DNA of 28,743 nt from a virus (Duplodnaviria; Heunggongvirae; Uroviricota; Caudoviricetes), in IMG/VR virus record IMGVR_UViG_2711768054_000001; one strand, 5' to 3'. Within the stretch, counting starts at the first letter, position 1. Each line of letters begins with the position of its first letter. The position numbers and the translations under genes were made by a program. Shown piece by piece: positions 1 to 16,390 of the stretch. A model generated the notes under the pieces. The model had not been told where the DNA came from. It did no database searches and saw nothing but the letters and a program-made list of their open reading frames with translations.

Positions 1-298
1 CTGTTCAGCAGATTATCAGGCGCAACTGAAGCGGCATAATCTGCGTGGAAGTATGAGCGCAAAAGGTTGCTGCTACGATAATGCCTGCGTGGAAAGCTTC
101 TTTCATTCGCTGAAAGTGGAATGTATCCATGGAGAACACTTTATCAGCCGGGAAATAATGCGGGCAACGGTGTTTAATTATATCGAATGTGATTACAATC
201 GGTGGCGGCGGCACAGTTGGTGTGGCGGCCTCAGTCCGGAACAATTTGAAAACAAGAACCTCGCTTAGGCCTGTGTCCATATTACGTGGGTAGGATCA
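1..298 (+). mobile_element. IS3-family insertion sequence, right end only (left part lies outside the window)
   Basis: Contains the 3-prime end of the transposase orfB (2-268); after the stop the sequence ...cctcgcttaggcctgtgtccatattacgtgggtaggatca ends at 298, matching the IS3 terminal inverted repeat as I remember it (TGATCCTACCCACGTAATATGGACACAGGCCTAAGCGAGG in reverse complement). Confidence 0.8.
2..268 (+). CDS. insF: IS3 transposase OrfB (InsF-like), C-terminal 88 codons, 5-prime partial at window edge
   Basis: Translation from position 2 gives [88 protein letters not shown], which I recognise as the C-terminus of E. coli IS3 InsF (DDE integrase-core end); stop TAG 266-268. Confidence 0.8.
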
Positions 299-419
299 CG
301 CAGGGGTCGGCCCATTTGAGCTTCAGATAGGAACGTTTGAATTCCTTTCACAAAATACATCACATACTGAACGTGAACATACCCACTTTGATCTTAAGGC
401 CAAAAAGTATGCAGGACTA

Positions 420-2138
420 ATGATTTTTAGGGATAGCTTGAGAGTATTTCCTTATGGTCGAGTAGATAATGATTTCTTCCAGATAGAAGAAAGACGTTCA
501 TGGAATGCAGGGCGATATTATTGGTCTAATAGAAGGATTTTTGGTTATATTGGAATTACTCAATCCAGTAATAAAGAGCTGAAAGATAAGTCGGGGAGAG
601 AGGGATTCATAAGAAACCAGGCTGCAAGAGAACTGAAAACTATTATATCTAATTTGTTAACTGAACTTGCTGATAGATTTTTTGGTTCACGTTCTGATGA
701 CCGTAAAGAGCTTTTAGAACAAGTTAAGCGTGAAAAAGAGTTAAGAAAATCTGCTCAACAACAAGCTCGAAAATCAACACAAAAAAGTTTTTCAGAAGCT
801 TTGAAGAATCAGACACCAGTTCTTGATGCTTCCTTGGAGGCTGTTAAAAGGCTGAAAACTAAGCTTGATAAAACTGATGGTTCGTTAGATTTAAACTATC
901 TTAAAATTATAGACAGTGATCTTACAAACTTAGATGCGTTGCGCAGTGAAATTAAAACGCCTATCAAACCTCCAAAACTTGGAATGTATGAAGAGAAATA
1001 TAGAGACTACAGAGATAAATTTAATGAGTTCTCTGCGTATATTCTACAAATGAAGTTAGCAATTAATAAACTTGATTCTGAATTAAATAAACTTGAGCCT
1101 TCATTGTCAGCGAAAAATCACCTTGAAAAAAATCAAGGTATTATTAATTCTAAACTAACTAAGTTTAATAACACGATAGAGGAGAAGATACATTCTCTTT
1201 TAAAAAAATGGGCCGATGAAATAAAGGTTGATCGAAGTGATTATTATGCTAAAACTATATCAGTTGTTGATTCAATAGATAATGATTCACAAATTGAAAA
1301 TGTGTTTAATTTGCTCGATAGTTTATATGTTGAGTCAGTTGATACCCTAACTTTCAAATATCAATCAATAATAAAAGGTCTCGATAGATTATTTGAAGGT
1401 ATAAACTTAGATTCAGCATTCTCATTATCTGAAGAAGAACGCTCATATTTTGAAGAAAAAGCTAAAAGTTTAAACGCGCTTGCACAGTTAGGTATTAGTG
1501 TTGAGATAATATCTCATGAACTTGAAGAAATGGATTCTATGGTAACCAGAGGACTAAACTCTCTTCCTACTTCTGTAAAAGAACACCCTGGTTTTTCATT
1601 GGCGTTAAATGCTCACAGATCGCTTACTCAACAAATACGTTTCTTATCACCTTTGAAAATATCAGGTTATCAATCCAGGCAGAGAATAACTGGAAAAAAT
1701 ATCATGGATTATGTCCTGAAGTTCTTTGGGGAGCGTTTCGAACGGCAACGAATAACTATTGAATTTAGTGAAGAGTTTAAGCAAATCGCAATAACAGATA
1801 TACCATCAAGGATCTATCCTGTTTTTACTAATATTATCAACAATGCAATGTATTGGGTCAGTCTGTCAAATAATAGGCTCATAAAGATTGGTTTTGTGAA
1901 TTCTTTGGTTATCATAGCAAATTCTGGTCCGGCAATTGATACCGATGATATCCCGCGACTATTTGAACTATTTTATAGCAAAAGAGCAAATGGACATGGG
2001 GTAGGTCTGTATCTATGTCGAGAAAACCTTGCTGTTGCACATCATAAAATATGGTATTCAGAACCTGATGAAGGCGATAACTATTTAATAAAAGATGGCG
2101 CTAATTTTGTGATCCAGTTCAATGGAGTGGAGTTCTAA
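420..2138 (+). CDS. Histidine-kinase-like ATPase (DHp + HATPase_c), apparently 5-prime truncated by the IS3 insertion
   Basis: ORF of 572 aa. Putative H-box ISVEIISHELEEMDSM, N-box NIINNAMYW and G-box GHGVGLYLCRENLA near the C-terminus; the N-terminal 330 aa are K/E-rich and look coiled-coil. The reading frame stays open upstream from 420 back to 294, right at the IS3 end, and there is no convincing RBS before the ATG at 420. GC content is visibly low. Confidence 0.55.
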   Translation: MIFRDSLRVFPYGRVDNDFFQIEERRSWNAGRYYWSNRRIFGYIGITQSSNKELKDKSGREGFIRNQAARELKTIISNLLTELADRFFGSRSDDRKELLEQVKREKELRKSAQQQARKSTQKSFSEALKNQTPVLDASLEAVKRLKTKLDKTDGSLDLNYLKIIDSDLTNLDALRSEIKTPIKPPKLGMYEEKYRDYRDKFNEFSAYILQMKLAINKLDSELNKLEPSLSAKNHLEKNQGIINSKLTKFNNTIEEKIHSLLKKWADEIKVDRSDYYAKTISVVDSIDNDSQIENVFNLLDSLYVESVDTLTFKYQSIIKGLDRLFEGINLDSAFSLSEEERSYFEEKAKSLNALAQLGISVEIISHELEEMDSMVTRGLNSLPTSVKEHPGFSLALNAHRSLTQQIRFLSPLKISGYQSRQRITGKNIMDYVLKFFGERFERQRITIEFSEEFKQIAITDIPSRIYPVFTNIINNAMYWVSLSNNRLIKIGFVNSLVIIANSGPAIDTDDIPRLFELFYSKRANGHGVGLYLCRENLAVAHHKIWYSEPDEGDNYLIKDGANFVIQFNGVEF

Positions 2139-2139
2139 T

Positions 2140-3888
2140 ATGACAGTGGCAAATTATAATTCTCTTGTCCAGAAAACTTTCTGCGAAAATGCAATTCGTT
2201 CCGTTGTCATGATTGATGACGATTTTCTGACGTATTCTGAATCAATCAGGGCGTTGAATAACGAAGTTGATTTAGACTACAACAAAATTGACTCATCTAA
2301 ACGAGCCGCTACTCTTGAGAGCTTTTTTCAATCTAAAAATATGATTTGTGATGTTGACAATGGTTCTGTTAATTTCGATGTGGATCGGATTAGAAAATCA
2401 GATCTTATTATTGTAGATTATCATCTTGATAATAATGCACCTGATAAAACACTTAAACTATTACAAGATTTGAAAGACTCCGATCATTTAAATATGGTTG
2501 TAATATATACTAGAGAGAATTTAGAAACGGTTTGGATGCAGATATCATCGACTCTCAAAGGTGCTCTGGATATCAACAGCTTGATCATTGACTACGATAA
2601 TGAAGATGTCCAAAGTTATTGGGAAGACGTTGTATTACCGAACTTAAATGATAATGGTAATAAAGCTCTCACAAGAGATGAAACAATAGCCTATATTAAA
2701 GACAGTAAGCCTTGTAGAAGAATTAAAAGATTAATACATGATGATGCTGTGTTGGAGGATCAAAAGGATAAAAACTTCATTGCAAAAATGATTGCAGAAT
2801 ATGCTGTGTCTAGAAATGCAATTATTTCTAGCAACACATCTGGCAATGTCATTCGGGGTGATGAAAGCGGAGTAAAATGGATTCAATGTGGTAATATCTT
2901 TGTCTCCCTATTTCATAAGGTTCAAGATGATCATGAAAACGATGGAGATAGGATTTGGCAAACTCTCAATGATTCTCTCATTGAATGGAAACCATCTTAT
3001 TATCAGTTAATAAAATCTGAAATTCAGAATGCAATCGAAGCTGAGGCTTTATCTTTTGTAAATCATTTGGCTAACGATCATTACGGTCAAGCTGCGTGGT
3101 TAAATGAGATATTAAAATCAGACTCGCCTGATATTAGATGTAGAAATATTGACTTTGTATTTGGTAATTTATCAGAAGAGCTTTATCAAAGACTTAAAAA
3201 TAATAATACGCTGGATGAATTTATCAAAAGTGTTTTTGATAGCTATTCAAATGAATACGCTAACAGCGGAGTTGCTGCATTGCTCCAATATTGCTCTTCA
3301 AAAATGGATCTGCCATCAAATAATGATACTTATCACGAAATGTATCATGCTTTAAATATGAATTTGTCTTCAAAGAATTTTGAAGATGGTCATATTTCTA
3401 CTGGCACTATTTTCTTTGATACAGAGTCGAACAAATGGTATTTATGTGTATCTGCGGCATGTGATTTGGTTCCTACTCAGGGTAACGACCCTCACCATGT
3501 AAGATTAAGTCCGCACAGGCTCATTAAAGTTCTGGAGCTTTTTAACGCCAGTCAGAGTAAAGCATTGCCATTTGCTGAACATTCGAAATATATATATGTA
3601 ATGCATAAAAATCAAAGAAAATATCTCTCTATTTTCGAAGGGGATAAAACGCTTCCTGTTGTTGATTATATGGTGGTGTTGAATCATGGAACAACAGTTG
3701 ATGGCGAAGAAAAAAATATTATTTCTGCCGTGTTTTTAAGTAATATGGATGGCAACGTGCAAAATGTTCCTGTCCGACTCAAACTTAAATCTCAACTGAG
3801 AACTGGTTATGCAGAAAGATATCAGGCTATAGCGTCTCAGTATAGCTCAAGGATTGGTGTGGATTATGTATCAATGATGCTACCATAA
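2140..3888 (+). CDS. Receiver (REC) domain protein with a ~450-aa C-terminal domain of unknown function
   Basis: N-terminus carries the response-regulator receiver signature: VVMIDDDF (acidic pair), LIIVDYHLD (putative phospho-acceptor Asp), MVVIYTRE (conserved Thr). RBS GGAGTGGAG at 2124-2132; ATG at 2140 lies one base after the upstream stop, suggesting translational coupling. AT-rich. No DNA-binding output domain recognisable. Confidence 0.6.
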   Translation: MTVANYNSLVQKTFCENAIRSVVMIDDDFLTYSESIRALNNEVDLDYNKIDSSKRAATLESFFQSKNMICDVDNGSVNFDVDRIRKSDLIIVDYHLDNNAPDKTLKLLQDLKDSDHLNMVVIYTRENLETVWMQISSTLKGALDINSLIIDYDNEDVQSYWEDVVLPNLNDNGNKALTRDETIAYIKDSKPCRRIKRLIHDDAVLEDQKDKNFIAKMIAEYAVSRNAIISSNTSGNVIRGDESGVKWIQCGNIFVSLFHKVQDDHENDGDRIWQTLNDSLIEWKPSYYQLIKSEIQNAIEAEALSFVNHLANDHYGQAAWLNEILKSDSPDIRCRNIDFVFGNLSEELYQRLKNNNTLDEFIKSVFDSYSNEYANSGVAALLQYCSSKMDLPSNNDTYHEMYHALNMNLSSKNFEDGHISTGTIFFDTESNKWYLCVSAACDLVPTQGNDPHHVRLSPHRLIKVLELFNASQSKALPFAEHSKYIYVMHKNQRKYLSIFEGDKTLPVVDYMVVLNHGTTVDGEEKNIISAVFLSNMDGNVQNVPVRLKLKSQLRTGYAERYQAIASQYSSRIGVDYVSMMLP

Positions 3889-3959: not shown

Positions 3960-4376
3960 TTATTTTTGTTTAAGTCTTCTAAGCTTCATGCATTCTAATG
4001 AGAATAATAATAGAGTTGTGCTGTATATAAAGCCAGAGTTAGTTAATAACTTTAAATTTAATGCTTCAGGATTTTCACTGAGAAAGTGAAAGGCATAAAC
4101 TAAGTATACAGCTAAAGTAGCCGTTCCAATTGTTGGTCCAATATCGCCTTGATCATGAGGTTCAAGGTTTACATTGAACTTGAAGATTAGCCATTCAAAT
4201 CCCCAAGTAAAAAAAACAACTAATATCATGGCTGCGAATAATTTCGCGATGTTATCTGCTGATGGATTCATCAGAACAGATTGTTTCTGAAAAAATTCAC
4301 AAAGTGAGAGTCCGAAAAAAATAAAAAAAAGTGGTCTGGAACTAAATTTTTCAAAAACTTTGAATAGGGTTTCCAT
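3960..4376 (-). CDS. Small multi-pass membrane protein (138 aa), unknown function
   Basis: ATG at 4376 preceded on the minus strand by RBS AAGGTAAAG; translation shows about four hydrophobic helices (LFFIFFGLSL, AAMILVVFFTWGF, TATLAVYLVYAF, FIYSTTLLLF); AT-rich. Confidence 0.5.
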   Translation of the reverse strand: METLFKVFEKFSSRPLFFIFFGLSLCEFFQKQSVLMNPSADNIAKLFAAMILVVFFTWGFEWLIFKFNVNLEPHDQGDIGPTIGTATLAVYLVYAFHFLSENPEALNLKLLTNSGFIYSTTLLLFSLECMKLRRLKQK

Positions 4377-4414: not shown

Positions 4415-5644
4415 TTAGGCTACCAGAGCATTTGATCTTTGAGCTTGAACGTAATCACTCCACCATTGCATCAAACTCTGTCGCTCTATCAGATATTCTG
4501 CACGATTGTATGCTGCGATAATTTCATCTTTTTTCGAGTGGGCAAGCGCTGCCTCAAGAACTTCAGCTCTGAATTTACCAGACTCCTCTGCCGCTGTTCG
4601 TGCAATAGAACGCATACCGTGAGCTACAAGCTCGCCTCCGAACCCCATTCGGATGATAGCTGCGTTGGCTGTTTGTTCATGCATATGATTAAGAGGCGCT
4701 TTTATGCTGGGGAAAACCCATTCTCTATGCCCACTTATTGATTTCATTAATTCAAGGATGCGCAAAGCTTCTTTACTCAAAGGAACTTTGTGAAGCTTTT
4801 TCATTTTCATGAAATCAGCAGGAATGTTCCAAATGCTGTTGGTTGTATCAATATCAGACCACCTTGCGCGAACGGCTTCACCCGGACGAACCCATGTCAA
4901 CAATTGCCATTCAATTAGCATACGTGTTTCCAACCGGATTGACGCATTCGTCAAAGATTCCATAAACCTTGGCAATTCGCTTGGGGGAAGGGCAGGCATA
5001 TTTTGCTTTTTTGGTTTACTGAATCTTTGACCAAGGTTGTCAGCCGGGTTGAACTCAATAAGTTCTTCAGTAGCTGCCCACCGGAAGATTTCATTCAGAC
5101 GTGAAATGATACGGCGTAGAGTTTCCAATACGCCTCGTTGCTCAATAGGATCAAGGTGTTGTTTTAAGAGCTTAGGTCGGATCTCATTGATAGGGACATT
5201 ACCCAGACCGGGAAAGACATTTCTCTCTAAGCTGCGCCAGATGTCTGCTGCATGGTCTTGTGAGATACCTGATGTCTTTACCTTCTCATCTAACCATTTC
5301 CGCGCTACGGCTTGGAGAGTGTGCTCAGTAGCACTCTTTAATGCCTTCGCCTTATCGTTGTTATGGATTTGGGGATCAACACCATTTGCCAGAAAGGAGA
5401 GATATTCATCACGTAAGGCTCTGGCTCTTGCAAGGGTAAGGTGAGGATATGTCCCAAGGCTCATTTTGGTTCTTTTCTTGCTCACTGGTACTGCATACCT
5501 GAAATACCAATTTTTCTTGCCTCCTTTCGCCAAAGGAGCGATTCGTAGAATCAGACCATCACCGTCAAACAAGTTGATTTCTTTATCGGCTGGCTTGGTG
5601 CTTTTGATTTCAGTGTCAGTGAGCTTCTTAGCGATTTTTGCCAT
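4415..5644 (-). CDS. int: P4/CP4-57-family tyrosine integrase
   Basis: Translation MAKIAKKLTDTEIKSTKPADKEINLFDGDGLILRIAPLAKGGKKNWYFRY... has the typical P4-type integrase N-terminus, and the C-terminal half contains the R...H..R...Y catalytic region (HGMRSIARTAAEE, EAALAHS, Y in AAYNRAEY). I take the ATG at 5644 as the start; the ORF-track start at 5686 would add a GPK/GPT-repeat extension encoded by GGACCC DNA repeats. Confidence 0.85.
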   Translation of the reverse strand: MAKIAKKLTDTEIKSTKPADKEINLFDGDGLILRIAPLAKGGKKNWYFRYAVPVSKKRTKMSLGTYPHLTLARARALRDEYLSFLANGVDPQIHNNDKAKALKSATEHTLQAVARKWLDEKVKTSGISQDHAADIWRSLERNVFPGLGNVPINEIRPKLLKQHLDPIEQRGVLETLRRIISRLNEIFRWAATEELIEFNPADNLGQRFSKPKKQNMPALPPSELPRFMESLTNASIRLETRMLIEWQLLTWVRPGEAVRARWSDIDTTNSIWNIPADFMKMKKLHKVPLSKEALRILELMKSISGHREWVFPSIKAPLNHMHEQTANAAIIRMGFGGELVAHGMRSIARTAAEESGKFRAEVLEAALAHSKKDEIIAAYNRAEYLIERQSLMQWWSDYVQAQRSNALVA

Positions 5645-5809
5645 TTTGGGACCCTCGGTTTTTGGACCCTTCTTAGTGGGTCCCATTCAGGGTGCCATAA
5701 CTCGTAGTTCTCAGCAATTCTCACTGGACGACAATAGACGTAAAAAAGCCCGCAGAGCTTGTGCTGTGTGGGCTTAGTAGACTTCATTGAACTTCAAACA
5801 ACTAAAAAG

Positions 5810-5854
5810 TGGTGGAGCTGGCGGGAGTTGAACCCGCGTCCGAAATTCCTACAT
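5810..5854 (-). other. ssrA: 3-prime-terminal 45 nt of ssrA (tmRNA), an att-site copy, not a complete gene
   Basis: Reverse complement of 5810-5854 reads ATGTAGGAATTTCGGACGCGGGTTCAACTCCCGCCAGCTCCACCA, identical to the 3-prime end (T-arm plus acceptor CCA) of E. coli tmRNA as I recall it. Similarity stops abruptly at 5855; the upstream sequence is AT-rich and unrelated to ssrA. Confidence 0.8.
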
Positions 5855-5970
5855 ACCATTTTGACTATAATAAAAACATATATTTATGTTTTAAAACAGT
5901 ACGTTAGTGTTATTTTGTTTTTGTCGGTTTTACACATTTTTAATGCTCTGCCGCCAAGTTGTCGCCATTG

Positions 5971-6954
5971 CTAATTCCTATCAGCAGGTAGAATTGCTGG
6001 GTAGAGCTTAGAGCAATCATTGCCATAGTCAGGGATAAAGTCCCATAGCCCTTTTGGCGTTTGGAAGACCTCAGGGCTTAAGCCAATCAGCATATAAACA
6101 TGAACTAACAGCTCGCGCAATCCAGTGACCATTTGCTTTATTTGTTTTTCATCAGAGAAAGAAGTGGTGAAGGGTTTTTCTTCAATGGAGTCAAAAAGAA
6201 TAAACTCATGTTTTTCATATCGATAGTCGATCCCTAATTCTCTGCAAAGTTGGATAATATTGATTTCGAGCATTTGAAGGGAAATCACTTGGATATCATA
6301 AGAAGTCTCTTTGTTGTAACAGCTTTTAATAGCTTTGTTGATATTCTTATAATAATCTTGAACTCTACCCATAAATAATGAACTTATTTCTTTGCTATAG
6401 CCTTCTTCAATAGAGGATTTTGTAAAAATATTCATGTAAAGAATATAAGGGTGAGAAATGGAAAGTTCTATATATTTTTTTCCATCATCGTGTTCGGTAA
6501 ACTCTCTACTAACGATAAATGAAGGGACGGTTTTAAAAATATCGGCATAACTCTTCTGGTGGGCATAAAATGAATCAGATTTATTTTTTGCTTTTACCAG
6601 CTCTATTTGATGCTCTGTCCTTGAAAGCTGCGTCTCTGTTTGAATGGTCCTGTGAATATTCTTAACTATAGCTCCAAGAGGTACTGAACTGGCTAGCAGC
6701 ATTAGAGGGAATTTACTGATTTCGTAAAAGCGAGTATAGCCGTGGGCACTTAACACCGGGACCTTGCCCCACCATGCGAAAATCCCAAAATAAAAGAATG
6801 ATAATACTGGTATTCCGATTGATAACCAGAATAATTTCTGTTTTATAAGGTTTTGTTCATTTAATAAATACCACTTGTATTTATATGTTAAATACAATAT
6901 GTATATTAACATTACAACATAGAACATAATGCCAATTGATGAATAAAGGGTCAT
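5971..6954 (-). CDS. Membrane protein of unknown function (327 aa); AT-rich cargo gene downstream of the P2-type integrase
   Basis: N-terminal hydrophobic helices (IGIMFYVVMLIYILYL, LFWLSIGIPVLSFFYFGIFAWWG, LMLLASSVPLGAIV) followed by a ~220-aa soluble domain. The start ATG (6954-6952, minus strand) overlaps the int stop (6953-6951) as ATGA. GC content is clearly lower than the flanking phage genes. Confidence 0.6.
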   Translation of the reverse strand: MTLYSSIGIMFYVVMLIYILYLTYKYKWYLLNEQNLIKQKLFWLSIGIPVLSFFYFGIFAWWGKVPVLSAHGYTRFYEISKFPLMLLASSVPLGAIVKNIHRTIQTETQLSRTEHQIELVKAKNKSDSFYAHQKSYADIFKTVPSFIVSREFTEHDDGKKYIELSISHPYILYMNIFTKSSIEEGYSKEISSLFMGRVQDYYKNINKAIKSCYNKETSYDIQVISLQMLEINIIQLCRELGIDYRYEKHEFILFDSIEEKPFTTSFSDEKQIKQMVTGLRELLVHVYMLIGLSPEVFQTPKGLWDFIPDYGNDCSKLYPAILPADRN

Positions 6955-7979
6955 GCTTTTTTCCAGTCTAATTTGTAAAGTGGATTTTTTGTTACAGCAT
7001 CTTCCAAGTGATCAGGGGCAAAGTGAGCGTAAACCATCGTCATTTTTATATCAGCATGGCCCAGAATATCGCGCAGTACCAGTATATTTCCGCCGTTCAT
7101 CATAAAATGGCTGGCGAATGTATGGCGCAGTACGTGGGTGCACTGGCCCTCTGGCAGTTCGATACCGGCTCGCTTTACTGCACGCTCAAAGGATTTTCTG
7201 CATGGGGTAAATAATCTCCCCCTGTTTTTAGGTAGTTCGTCATACAGTTCTTGAGATATTGGAACGGTTCGGTTTTTTTTACCTTTGGTCTTGGTATAAG
7301 TAATGCGATATTTTGATAACTGATGCCCTTGCAGGTTTTCTGCTTCACTCCATCGGGCACCAGTTGCTAGGCATATTTTTGCAATCATCAACAGACTGGG
7401 ACTCTGAGAATCAGCACAGGCATCCAGTAGGCGTTTAATTTCTTCCGGGGTCAGGAATGCTAGTTCACCCTCAGCGATTTTAAATGTTGGCAGCCCGACG
7501 AGAGGATTTGGTGCTGACCAGTGGCCTAGTTTTTTCAATGTGCCGAAAACCGATGATAGGTTACGTTGCTCAAGATTCACCGTGCGTGGTTTTACTGGCG
7601 ACATTAGTGTGCCGTCTTCGTTACGAAGGTCACCTTTTAACCGTGCTTCGCGGTATTTCGTAAAGTCTCCGGCTGTCAGTTCTGAGGCGATGGGGTCGCC
7701 TAGACCATTACAGATAATTCTAAGTTTCGCCATGAGGCGCTTGGGGTCTGCGAGTGTCTGACCATACAGGGAATACCAAAGCTCAATTAACTCTGATAGG
7801 CGTCGCCGATCATCCTTTTCACCCAACCACGGTTTTTTATTCACTTCTTCCATTGTGAAGCTTTCAAACGCAATGGCTTCGCCTTTCGTGGCAAATTGCT
7901 TACGCACGCGCTTGCCATTGCGTCCATTGGGATAGCACTCACACAACCATTTTCCGTTCGGCTGTTTTCTGATGGTCAT
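6951..7979 (-). CDS. int: P2-type tyrosine integrase
   Basis: 342 aa, MTIRKQPNGKWLCECYPNGRNGKRVRKQFATKGEAIAFE...; C-terminus has ARWSE...HVLRHTFASHFMMNGGNILVLRDILGHADIKMTMVYAH (R-H-R-Y motifs). Size and sequence resemble P2/186 Int. Confidence 0.9.
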   Translation of the reverse strand: MTIRKQPNGKWLCECYPNGRNGKRVRKQFATKGEAIAFESFTMEEVNKKPWLGEKDDRRRLSELIELWYSLYGQTLADPKRLMAKLRIICNGLGDPIASELTAGDFTKYREARLKGDLRNEDGTLMSPVKPRTVNLEQRNLSSVFGTLKKLGHWSAPNPLVGLPTFKIAEGELAFLTPEEIKRLLDACADSQSPSLLMIAKICLATGARWSEAENLQGHQLSKYRITYTKTKGKKNRTVPISQELYDELPKNRGRLFTPCRKSFERAVKRAGIELPEGQCTHVLRHTFASHFMMNGGNILVLRDILGHADIKMTMVYAHFAPDHLEDAVTKNPLYKLDWKKA

Positions 7980-7980
7980 A

Positions 7981-8613
7981 TCAAAGGCTCTTAATGATTT
8001 TCAGTGCGCGGCCTACTACCTCAATGTCATCCAGGCCGCACTCAAACGATGAATCATCCTGATGCACTACTAATTTGTTTCCCGGGAGTCGAGTCAATTT
8101 AACAATGCTTTTTATCCCGTCGATATCGACTAACCACATACCATTTACTAGTGGTGTTTGGTTGCGATCTATTAAATAAGAATCACCAGAAGTAGTTACC
8201 AGCAGTAGGTTGCTTGAGTTTGAGGGGAGTATGCTGCTATCAATGATTGCTTTTCCAGCATCGATCAATAAACCACCGTTGAGAGTCGCCTTGTCAATTT
8301 CAGGAGATACTAGTTCAGAAAGAGGTATAACCTTGCTGGAGTTCACGGAATTGATATTTTTTTTGGGTTCAATGTTTGAACCTGGCTCCCCCTGTCCGGT
8401 GGTTAGCCACAGTAAAGAAACTCCTGTTTCCAAGGCGCACTGAATCACCCACTCTGCAGGAAAACTATCTCTTAAGTATCTGTTTGCCATGGTACTTTTT
8501 GATGCGCCTAAGTGATCGCAAAGTTGCTGTCTGGACTTGAAATCATAGGCTGCCATTAGTCTATGGATAGCCTCTCTTCCCCCTGTATTCTCTCCAGCCT
8601 TTACCTGTATCAT
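7981..8613 (-). CDS. CI-like immunity repressor (HTH N-terminal domain), 186-type
   Basis: 210 aa; divergent from the early operon and adjacent to int; N-terminal helix-turn-helix region (SKSTMANRYLRDSFPAEWVIQCALETGVSLLWLTTGQG); no obvious LexA-like Ser-Lys autocleavage motif. Confidence 0.7.
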   Translation of the reverse strand: MIQVKAGENTGGREAIHRLMAAYDFKSRQQLCDHLGASKSTMANRYLRDSFPAEWVIQCALETGVSLLWLTTGQGEPGSNIEPKKNINSVNSSKVIPLSELVSPEIDKATLNGGLLIDAGKAIIDSSILPSNSSNLLLVTTSGDSYLIDRNQTPLVNGMWLVDIDGIKSIVKLTRLPGNKLVVHQDDSSFECGLDDIEVVGRALKIIKSL

Positions 8614-14980: not shown

Positions 14981-16390
14981 ATGTCTTTTCTTGATATAAA
15001 AAAAATGAGTAAAGAGAGGTTTAATGCTTTTGTTGATTGGACCAGAATGCCAAATACTGAACTTTTAGGCTATGAGTTTGAGTGGTACTGTAGTCCGAGA
15101 GAGTTCCTGCTAGGGGCACTATTATTGGATCAAATCGATGAAGATTATAGCGGTATTGTTTTAGCAAGAGACTTAAGTGGGAGATATAGATGTATTGACC
15201 TATTTACTAGTGTTTCAGAAATGAATTCTGCACGAGCAAAACTAAAGAAATTAATGCGGAAGCATACTAAATTAAACGTAAAAGTATTTCCACAAGGTGA
15301 TGAAACTTATAAAGCAATGGATTTATTCACACCTATAGTTACACCAGATAAACTTCATCATCATTTTTCATTATTTGGTAAATACGCGAACTGGTCGCCT
15401 GCAACAGGGATAATCAAGGAAATGATGAATCATTTTGAGGATGTCGACGGGAATTTTATAGAGCAGTTTCAGACAACAGGTTTTGATGCCCGGCTATGGG
15501 AGTTATATCTTTTCGCATATTTACGAGAGGAACACTTTTGGCTAGATAGGCAGTTTAATGCTCCTGATTATGTGGCACGTAAGTATGGTAATACTATTTG
15601 CATTGAAGCTGTAACGGTTAATCCAACAGGGAATGATATTAATCAATCATCTGAAATGCTATCTGAACCTAAAAGTAAGGAAGAATTGCTAGAGAAAATA
15701 GAGAATTATATGCCGATTAAATTTGGAAGTTCTCTCTATTCTAAACTGAAAAAGAAAACTCGATACTGGGATCTAGAACATGTTAAGGGGAATCCTTTAA
15801 TTTTCGCAATTGCTGATTTTCATGAACCAAACTCTATGATTTGGTCCCATAGTGCACTTTGGCAGTATCTTTATGGTATTCGCTATGAGCATGTTAAATC
15901 TGAAGATGGATGTTACAGTTTAGCAACTAAGAAAATTATATCGCATCAATTTGAGAAAAAGGAAATTCCTTCAGGCTTTTTCTTCTTGGATGAGTCTGAA
16001 AATATTTCGGCCGTCCTTAGTTCTAATAGTGGTACTATATCGAAGTTTAATCGGATGGGAAAACTGGCTGGTTTTGGAAGAAGTGACCTTAGATTATTTA
16101 GGAGTGGTTACTGCCATGATCATGACCCAGAGGCATTATATCCAGCAGCATTTAGTTTTGAAGTGAAAGAAGGCGATATTACAGAAACATGGGCAGAAGG
16201 TTTAAATATGTATCATAATCCTAATGCTAAATATCCTGTAGATCCTGATTTATTTCCTTCAATAGCACATCATTTTCTTGAAAATGGAGAGGTTAAAAGT
16301 ATAGTGCCTGACTTTCATCCGTATACATCTATTACCATAAATGTCTTAACTCAAAATAATAAAAAACAAAAAATCAGAGTAGATGAGTAA
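14981..16390 (+). CDS. Hypothetical protein (469 aa), AT-rich cargo gene between the candidate cos site and the portal gene
   Basis: Long ORF with RBS GAGG upstream; GC content much lower than the flanking phage genes; no motif I can assign (no Walker A, no clear nuclease signature); no TM segments apparent. Confidence 0.7.
   Translation: MSFLDIKKMSKERFNAFVDWTRMPNTELLGYEFEWYCSPREFLLGALLLDQIDEDYSGIVLARDLSGRYRCIDLFTSVSEMNSARAKLKKLMRKHTKLNVKVFPQGDETYKAMDLFTPIVTPDKLHHHFSLFGKYANWSPATGIIKEMMNHFEDVDGNFIEQFQTTGFDARLWELYLFAYLREEHFWLDRQFNAPDYVARKYGNTICIEAVTVNPTGNDINQSSEMLSEPKSKEELLEKIENYMPIKFGSSLYSKLKKKTRYWDLEHVKGNPLIFAIADFHEPNSMIWSHSALWQYLYGIRYEHVKSEDGCYSLATKKIISHQFEKKEIPSGFFFLDESENISAVLSSNSGTISKFNRMGKLAGFGRSDLRLFRSGYCHDHDPEALYPAAFSFEVKEGDITETWAEGLNMYHNPNAKYPVDPDLFPSIAHHFLENGEVKSIVPDFHPYTSITINVLTQNNKKQKIRVDE

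Follow-up and report, generated by a model that had tools for sequence, protein, structure and literature searches.

An IS3 element marks the probable joint of a deletion that truncates a kinase-like gene in a genomic island at ssrA of Escherichia coli

The HEF_HK and Response_reg_2 families have been described as a cytoplasmic two-component-like pair, the genes of which are linked in 91.6% of 644 loci and are associated with C5 methylases and paraMORC ATPases (Bellieny-Rabelo, Pretorius and Moleleki 2021, PMC8011034). In that survey, an N-terminal HATPase_c_3 domain of the paraMORC type was present in 83% of the kinase-like family members, and 34 of 222 HEF_HK proteins lacked this domain, the architecture designated 'group 2' (PMC8011034); the association of paraMORC with restriction-modification (R-M) systems itself dates to Iyer et al. 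2008. We found no experimental report on the HEF_HK/Response_reg_2 family in the literature, and its function is predicted. Here we analyzed a 28,743-nucleotide stretch of DNA held as a viral record (Caudoviricetes, IMG/VR IMGVR_UViG_2711768054_000001; the whole stretch is referred to below as the window), one end of which carries the terminus of an insertion sequence (IS), IS3, followed by two adjacent and co-oriented open reading frames (ORFs) that, as in the described system, match PF19191 plus PF02518 and PF19192, respectively. A preliminary description of this DNA, made from its letters alone, had proposed that IS3 inserted within the coding sequence of the kinase gene. As set out below, positions 1-420 of the window very probably hold the right-hand joint of a deletion that is bounded by IS3 and affects a genomic island integrated at ssrA.

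Two further described systems resemble this locus. Like CP4-57 of K-12, the island is integrated at ssrA, lies beside smpB and ssrA, and has a tyrosine integrase adjoining the ssrA 3' end; in K-12-type genomes, the region at the far boundary contains ypjA, ypjC, ileY, and ygaQ. Unlike CP4-57, the island carries a methylase/kinase/receiver module as its cargo, its distal end is deleted into ygaQ, and a P2/186-like prophage stands in tandem between it and ssrA. The second system is the IS150-mediated deletion of the rbs operon in the Lenski long-term E. coli lines, reportedly described by Cooper et al. in 2001, for which the accepted route is said to be insertion of a second IS150 copy nearby and subsequent recombination of the two copies.

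Positions 1-298 (+ strand) of the window are the 3' end of IS3 and comprise the C-terminal part of the orfB transposase gene and the right terminal inverted repeat, which is imperfect, spans ~39 bp (260-298), and ends in GGTAGGATCA. The window itself holds only these last 298 nucleotides of the element; the full IS3 was seen in a genome locus (L001) that is nearly identical to the window (one mismatch seen, at window position 381), where it is 1258 bp in length (7041-8298), starts with TGATCTTACCC, and finishes with GGGTAGGATCA, corresponding to window position 298. Its left inverted repeat (IRL, TGATCTTACCCAGC...) and right inverted repeat (IRR, ...GTGGGTAGGATCA) are imperfect and ~39 bp long, and the element begins with TG and ends with CA, so that both its size and its termini are those of IS3. 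Further, RefSeq labels it 'IS3-like element IS3 family transposase, programmed frameshift', in two joined pieces, consistent with the -1 frameshift between orfA and orfB. In the frame of the ATG at 420, a stop codon (TAG, 291-293) lies within IS3, positions 294-419 are open, and the first ATG, GTG, or TTG is the ATG at 420 itself; the preliminary description, which had placed the IS3 end at 298 with the frame open back to 294 and an in-frame stop inside the IS, was therefore exact to the base. Because the orfB stop (266-268) is in a different frame from the kinase gene, no fusion protein is possible.

The ORF at 420-2138 (+ strand) encodes 572 amino acids, which comprise the end of the region that follows the GHKL domain in intact homologues, a long helical segment, a HEF_HK DHp-like domain with a SHELEE His box, and a C-terminal HATPase_c domain. 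It matches the profiles of HEF_HK (PF19191, 26.2 bits against a cutoff of 24.1) and HATPase_c (PF02518, E 2e-11), the core of its product matches the structure of the ThkA sensor kinase (3a0r, E 1e-6), and 'kinase' seems a fair name for it. Homologues were searched for with the translation of 300-2135 (612 amino acids), which takes in the 40 codons ahead of Met420, and proteins of 988-991 amino acids from Salmonella, Klebsiella, and Serratia were found to be 99% identical over 100% of this query. Consistent with this result, only residues 376-988 of an intact orthologue (P0003) could be aligned with locus L001 by tblastn. The joint itself lies at 298/299, where the IS3 terminus (298) meets position 299, which is the third base in kinase codon Asn376, and the alignment with the intact kinase gene of Salmonella (L003) starts at ...AATCCTAA|CGCAGG. 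Positions 299-419 (+ strand) are former kinase codons 376 (third base) to 416, in frame and without a start codon, and now constitute an untranslated leader; their translation, AGVGPFELQIGTFEFLSQNTSHTEREHTHFDLKAKKYAGL, has one difference from residues 377-416 of P0003. Across the breakpoint, the intact protein has ...ISVNPN|AGVGPFELQIGTFEF..., where the window has IS3|C-GCA-GGG-GTC..., translated as AGVGPFELQ. Because the 40 codons match residues 377-416 of the 988-amino-acid homologues and the similarity ends at the IS3 terminus, the abutment of the open frame and IS3 is not due to chance. The kinase gene is thus 5'-truncated exactly at the IS3 end, as the preliminary description had suggested, with 376 residues gone.

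The missing part includes the paraMORC-type GHKL domain: HATPase_c_3, which occupies residues 28-137 of P0003 (the 99% identical orthologue), was not found in the window kinase ORF in a Pfam search because the deletion removed the N terminus of the kinase. The lost N-terminal region is densely invariant across 31 homologues, in all of which S781, H782, E783, L784, and E785 of the SHELEE motif are likewise invariant; this motif is kept in the window ORF. The AlphaFold model of the full-length kinase was poor (predicted local distance difference test (pLDDT) score, 58; predicted template modeling (pTM) score, 0.32) and was used for secondary structure only.

Intact versions of the island, in which the HATPase_c_3 domain and an upstream C5 methylase gene are present as in the published system (PMC8011034), were found on four Salmonella contigs, where a C5 cytosine DNA methylase gene is followed by a 988-amino-acid kinase-like gene, a Response_reg_2 gene, a gene for a 138-amino-acid protein, an integrase gene, and then further mobile-element genes. 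The methylase of the intact islands is 395 amino acids long, and its gene overlaps the start of the kinase gene by 20 nucleotides; the three-gene operon of methylase, kinase-like, and Response_reg_2 genes occurs in this intact island type in Salmonella, Klebsiella, and Serratia. The intact kinase-like protein is soluble; it starts with a paraMORC-type GHKL ATPase at the N terminus, continues with a long helical region and the HEF_HK His box, and has HATPase_c at the C terminus. The window copy differs from the published system in having neither HATPase_c_3 nor the methylase, both of which were removed by the deletion, and no C5 methylase or other R-M component was found between IS3 and the integrase gene in the window.

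If IS3 had simply inserted in the kinase coding sequence, then the N-terminal half of the kinase and a 3-bp target duplication would be expected beyond the other end of the element, as the preliminary description had anticipated. In support of this explanation, the IS terminus exactly adjoins the open frame, the in-frame stop lies within the IS, and some insertion in the kinase gene must once have been the first step. However, beyond the other end of the same IS3 copy in L001 we found a ygaQ-like alpha-amylase pseudogene, which is on the opposite strand and has lost its own 5' half. In K-12-type genomes, the corresponding ygaQ-like gene is 2253 bp in length, and next to it come ileY, ypjC, a recombinase remnant, and ypjA; at the breakpoint, the intact ygaQ runs on as ...TTATCT|TTACTTGC. 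The triplets flanking IS3 are TCT on the left and CGC on the right, and thus there is no 3-bp target duplication, nor do the two IS3 ends carry two halves of one gene, as the left flank is ygaQ' and the 5' part of the kinase gene is missing. Neither the methylase nor the 5' part of the kinase gene was found in any of 5,426 complete E. coli genomes, among which 555 match the query built on these two parts, only from the breakpoint onward. The reciprocal junction was also not recovered: the pattern kinase-5'-end N{0,8} IS3-left-end gave nothing in 185,579 species-representative genomes, and a chimeric query that joined the right end of IS3 to TCT and the sequence that follows in ygaQ gave nothing at a coverage of at least 80% in the 5,426 E. 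coli genomes. We consider a simple insertion very unlikely, and as an account of the present state of the locus it is refuted by the ygaQ' flank, the unlike triplets, and the missing kinase 5' part. Of the proposal that the IS inserted in the coding sequence, the 5' truncation at the IS3 end thus stands and the simple insertion does not.

Because the left flank of IS3 is ygaQ', the flanking triplets are unequal, and the kinase 5' part and methylase are missing from all 5,426 genomes, IS3 is best understood as bounding a deletion. In this E. coli form, a single IS3 copy stands between nucleotide 1127 of the kinase gene and a point in the middle of the ygaQ-like alpha-amylase pseudogene of the chromosome. 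Kinase codons 1-376, the methylase gene, the region upstream of the operon, and the distal portion of the island, along with the far attachment (att) site, are lost, as is chromosomal backbone into ygaQ, including ileY and ypjC relative to K-12-type genomes. Such a deletion could have arisen if ygaQ and the kinase gene each carried an IS3 copy in direct orientation and the two copies underwent homologous recombination, or by a one-step adjacent deletion promoted by IS3; both routes would leave one IS3 copy with unmatched flanks, and because no intermediate was recovered, the two are indistinguishable. As in the IS150-mediated rbs deletions, one IS copy stands where unrelated sequences meet, no target-site duplication flanks it, and the genes to either side are truncated. 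Unlike the rbs deletions, the present one takes part of an ssrA island together with backbone (the ygaQ 5' half and, compared with K-12 types, ileY and ypjC), and it is fixed in natural lineages rather than laboratory-born, with no intermediate recovered.

An explanation of a different kind is that 572 amino acids constitute a natural short architecture of HEF_HK plus HATPase_c, akin to 'group 2', that starts at Met420 and upstream of which IS3 merely landed. In hundreds of E. coli genomes, the 572-amino-acid remnant bears the RefSeq name of an intact 'ATP-binding protein', a single protein cluster has over 2,000 member sequences, and 572-amino-acid entries are also present in the databases from several other genera (Pectobacterium, Klebsiella, Salmonella, Yersinia, and Morganella); this, together with the absence of HATPase_c_3 from 34 of the 222 HEF_HK proteins surveyed (PMC8011034), would be in keeping with a natural short form. 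However, the 121 nucleotides before Met420 encode the in-frame residues 377-416, with the match ending at the IS terminus, and the short Salmonella forms do not withstand inspection. In one of them (L007 4735-7719, GCA_009435335.1), the gene call is 572 amino acids long and the frame is open for ~990 codons from MQMRSL..., whereas in the other (L008) the kinase gene runs off the end of the contig. These two, at least, are artefacts of annotation or assembly, and the L007 start was probably copied from the abundant 572-amino-acid model of E. coli. Homologues with a natural start at Met420, which would have spoken against a truncation, were accordingly not what we found: the intact protein has 988 amino acids, and at least one 572-amino-acid entry from another species is mis-annotated. 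A natural short form is therefore extremely unlikely, and the window copy, which would fit 'group 2' by its domains, is a truncation product and not a natural variant.

To return to the deletion, its exact 80-nucleotide junction is present in 484 of the 5,426 complete genomes, which represent many serotypes and sources (E. coli W/LY180 and an O26 strain are examples of carriers), and this distribution does not agree with the recent turnover of the locus that the preliminary description had read from it. The remnant module (at least 80% coverage) is present in 560 complete genomes, all of which align from the same breakpoint or within ~3 nucleotides of it, and the sampled modules are 99.8-100% identical. 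The deletion is a single older event, carried by ~9-10% of complete E. coli genomes, with minor secondary events since. In a few genomes with the remnant, IS3 itself is absent, the kinase breakpoint is kept exactly, and 6 or 24 more nucleotides of ygaQ are gone: in O111:H8 strain 7-58 72A the sequence reads ...GAGATG-CG-CGCAGGGG (6 nucleotides of ygaQ lost, with a CG filler), and in strain UTAK-4 it reads ...TTTTCC-CGCAGGGG (24 nucleotides lost). The same two forms were seen in short-read assemblies. Because the IS3-less forms keep the kinase breakpoint and have fewer ygaQ bases, the IS3-bearing form is ancestral to them. The two derivatives are independent of each other (L014 ~2500-2515, L015 ~3995-4005, L011, and L012), and their deletions are anchored at the IS3 right end.

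Two database records with this junction or remnant call for comment. A junction scan of the species-representative genomes gave one match, on a 5.6-kb contig in a metagenome-assembled genome (MAG) labelled 'Bacteroidales bacterium' (L013 41-78), which is almost certainly an E. coli binning contaminant. The IS3/kinase remnant island is also present at ssrA in NZ_CP026085.1 (L002, 4.83 Mb), which is labelled strain DH5alpha; a K-12 derivative such as DH5alpha would presumably have the CP4-57 arrangement at ssrA, and the strain label may be wrong.

We next consider the state in which the deletion has left the module. The only Shine-Dalgarno-like motif ahead of the remnant is AGGA at 413-416, which is 3 nucleotides from the ATG at 420 and poorly spaced, in line with the preliminary remark that no convincing ribosome-binding site (RBS) precedes 420. 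In a consensus scan, no sigma-70-like promoter or terminator-like site was detected in 160-700, and the scan of 1-700 returned just two chance-level sites, both within IS3, a result that speaks neither for nor against a hybrid promoter. Because the methylase 3' end overlaps the kinase start by 20 nucleotides in the intact operon, the native promoter was presumably located ahead of the methylase gene and would hence have been lost. Any expression of the remnant would have to come by read-through out of IS3, the transposase genes of which are oriented toward it with no terminator-like site between. The kinase remnant differs from its Salmonella orthologue by 7 nonsynonymous and 4 synonymous changes, one of which puts F in place of L in the RVLPYG motif, which is invariant otherwise, whereas the RR-like (response regulator-like, Response_reg_2), 138-amino-acid, and integrase genes together have 10 nonsynonymous and 32 synonymous differences (Fisher p = 0.025 versus the kinase). 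The nonsynonymous excess in the kinase remnant is weakly suggestive of relaxed constraint. Overall, the remnant is most likely promoterless, sensor-less, and non-functional, though its frames are intact, and the island is most likely locked in place.

Several points weigh against the account given so far. No genome with IS3 in just one of the two genes was found, and the two-step route is inferred, not seen; the nonsynonymous excess rests on 11 substitutions, of which one alone is at a conserved site; the 572- and 582-amino-acid frames have stayed intact, with 99.8-100% identity across the sampled genomes, for which selection rather than youth is a possible cause; and a sensor-less core of DHp and CA domains could in principle still phosphorylate the receiver protein. 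The truncated module might be retained because it works, with IS3 read-through supplying a sensor-less kinase core that phosphorylates the receiver protein in a domesticated or constitutive function. Such retention would account for the integrity, in hundreds of genomes, of both ORFs and of the 1-nucleotide spacing between the kinase stop and the RR-like start, for the continued presence of the SHELEE His box and HATPase_c, and for the 3 nonsynonymous versus 7 synonymous differences of the RR-like gene on its own, and the IS3 transposase genes do aim into the remnant without a terminator-like site. However, with a divergence of just 0.6%, intact ORFs are expected even without selection. The junction has no promoter-like site and a poor RBS, the remnant begins within the region after the GHKL domain, and relatively more nonsynonymous change, including one substitution at an invariant residue, is found in the kinase remnant. 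Moreover, the upstream sequence is altered in the IS3-less derivatives with no visible consequence. We therefore regard retained function as unlikely and prefer a non-functional remnant.

The remainder of the island is as follows. The RR-like gene (2140-3888, + strand, PF19192) starts 1 nucleotide past the kinase stop and encodes 582 amino acids; consistent with Response_reg_2 membership, it is adjacent to the kinase gene, and its product has an acidic pocket and a phospho-acceptor Asp. The C-terminal region of the protein (~residues 230-582) was confidently modelled and contains invariant polar residues, such as H403, N406, C436, C441, D442, Q552, R554, Y557, R571, and D575, and no significant fold match for this region was found in the PDB. 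The gene at 3960-4376 (- strand) encodes a hydrophobic hypothetical protein of 138 amino acids, which is a constant companion of the module, stands at the equivalent place in the Salmonella loci (L003-L008), and gave no match to a Pfam family or a PADLOC model. PADLOC likewise had no model for the kinase, whether as remnant or at full length, gave a weak match only for the RR-like protein (C3a59, E 0.005), and matched the methylase of the intact islands with its generic type II/Druantia/DISARM methylase models. The tyrosine integrase gene of the ssrA island (4415-5686, - strand; annotated start 5644) encodes arm-binding, central, and catalytic domains. It is followed by a 47-nucleotide copy of the ssrA 3' end (att core; 5810-5856, + strand), which is the sole copy in the window; a complete transfer-messenger RNA (tmRNA) gene was not found within the window, and the distal att site of the island lies in the deleted part.

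The rest of the window (5810-28743) is a P2/186-like prophage, which stands in tandem with the decayed island and separates it from ssrA. Its genes include those for an integrase, a 186-type CI, CII, a Dam-like D12 methylase, gpA, portal, terminase, and a P2 capsid protein. A 469-amino-acid ORF (14981-16390, + strand) without a Pfam match is hit by the PADLOC anti-phage model PD-T7-1 (E 1e-196); its place, with replication gene A on one side and the portal gene on the other, is one where cargo is known to occur. A 327-amino-acid ORF (5971-6954, - strand) with a hydrophobic N terminus, flanked by the ssrA att copy and the prophage integrase gene, gave no Pfam or PADLOC match and may be prophage cargo.

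In conclusion, the locus represents ordinary IS-driven island decay, and its junction, with one breakpoint in 484 of 5,426 genomes and nested secondary events, is a clean lineage marker. For the family as a whole, the mis-called short forms indicate that surveys of domain architecture, such as the assignment of proteins without HATPase_c_3 to 'group 2' (PMC8011034), may partly count artefacts. It is improbable that the kinase core and its receiver partner survive as a working pair, transcribed from IS3 and selected in ~10% of E. coli without the paraMORC ATPase input and the protective methylase; were this so, the locus would be a natural experiment on whether arming of the effector requires the GHKL input domain or whether the pair has been co-opted elsewhere. 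Finally, the persistence of the receiver/effector gene without the methylase and the ATPase input mildly suggests that the effector is harmless unless it is armed by the full-length kinase.

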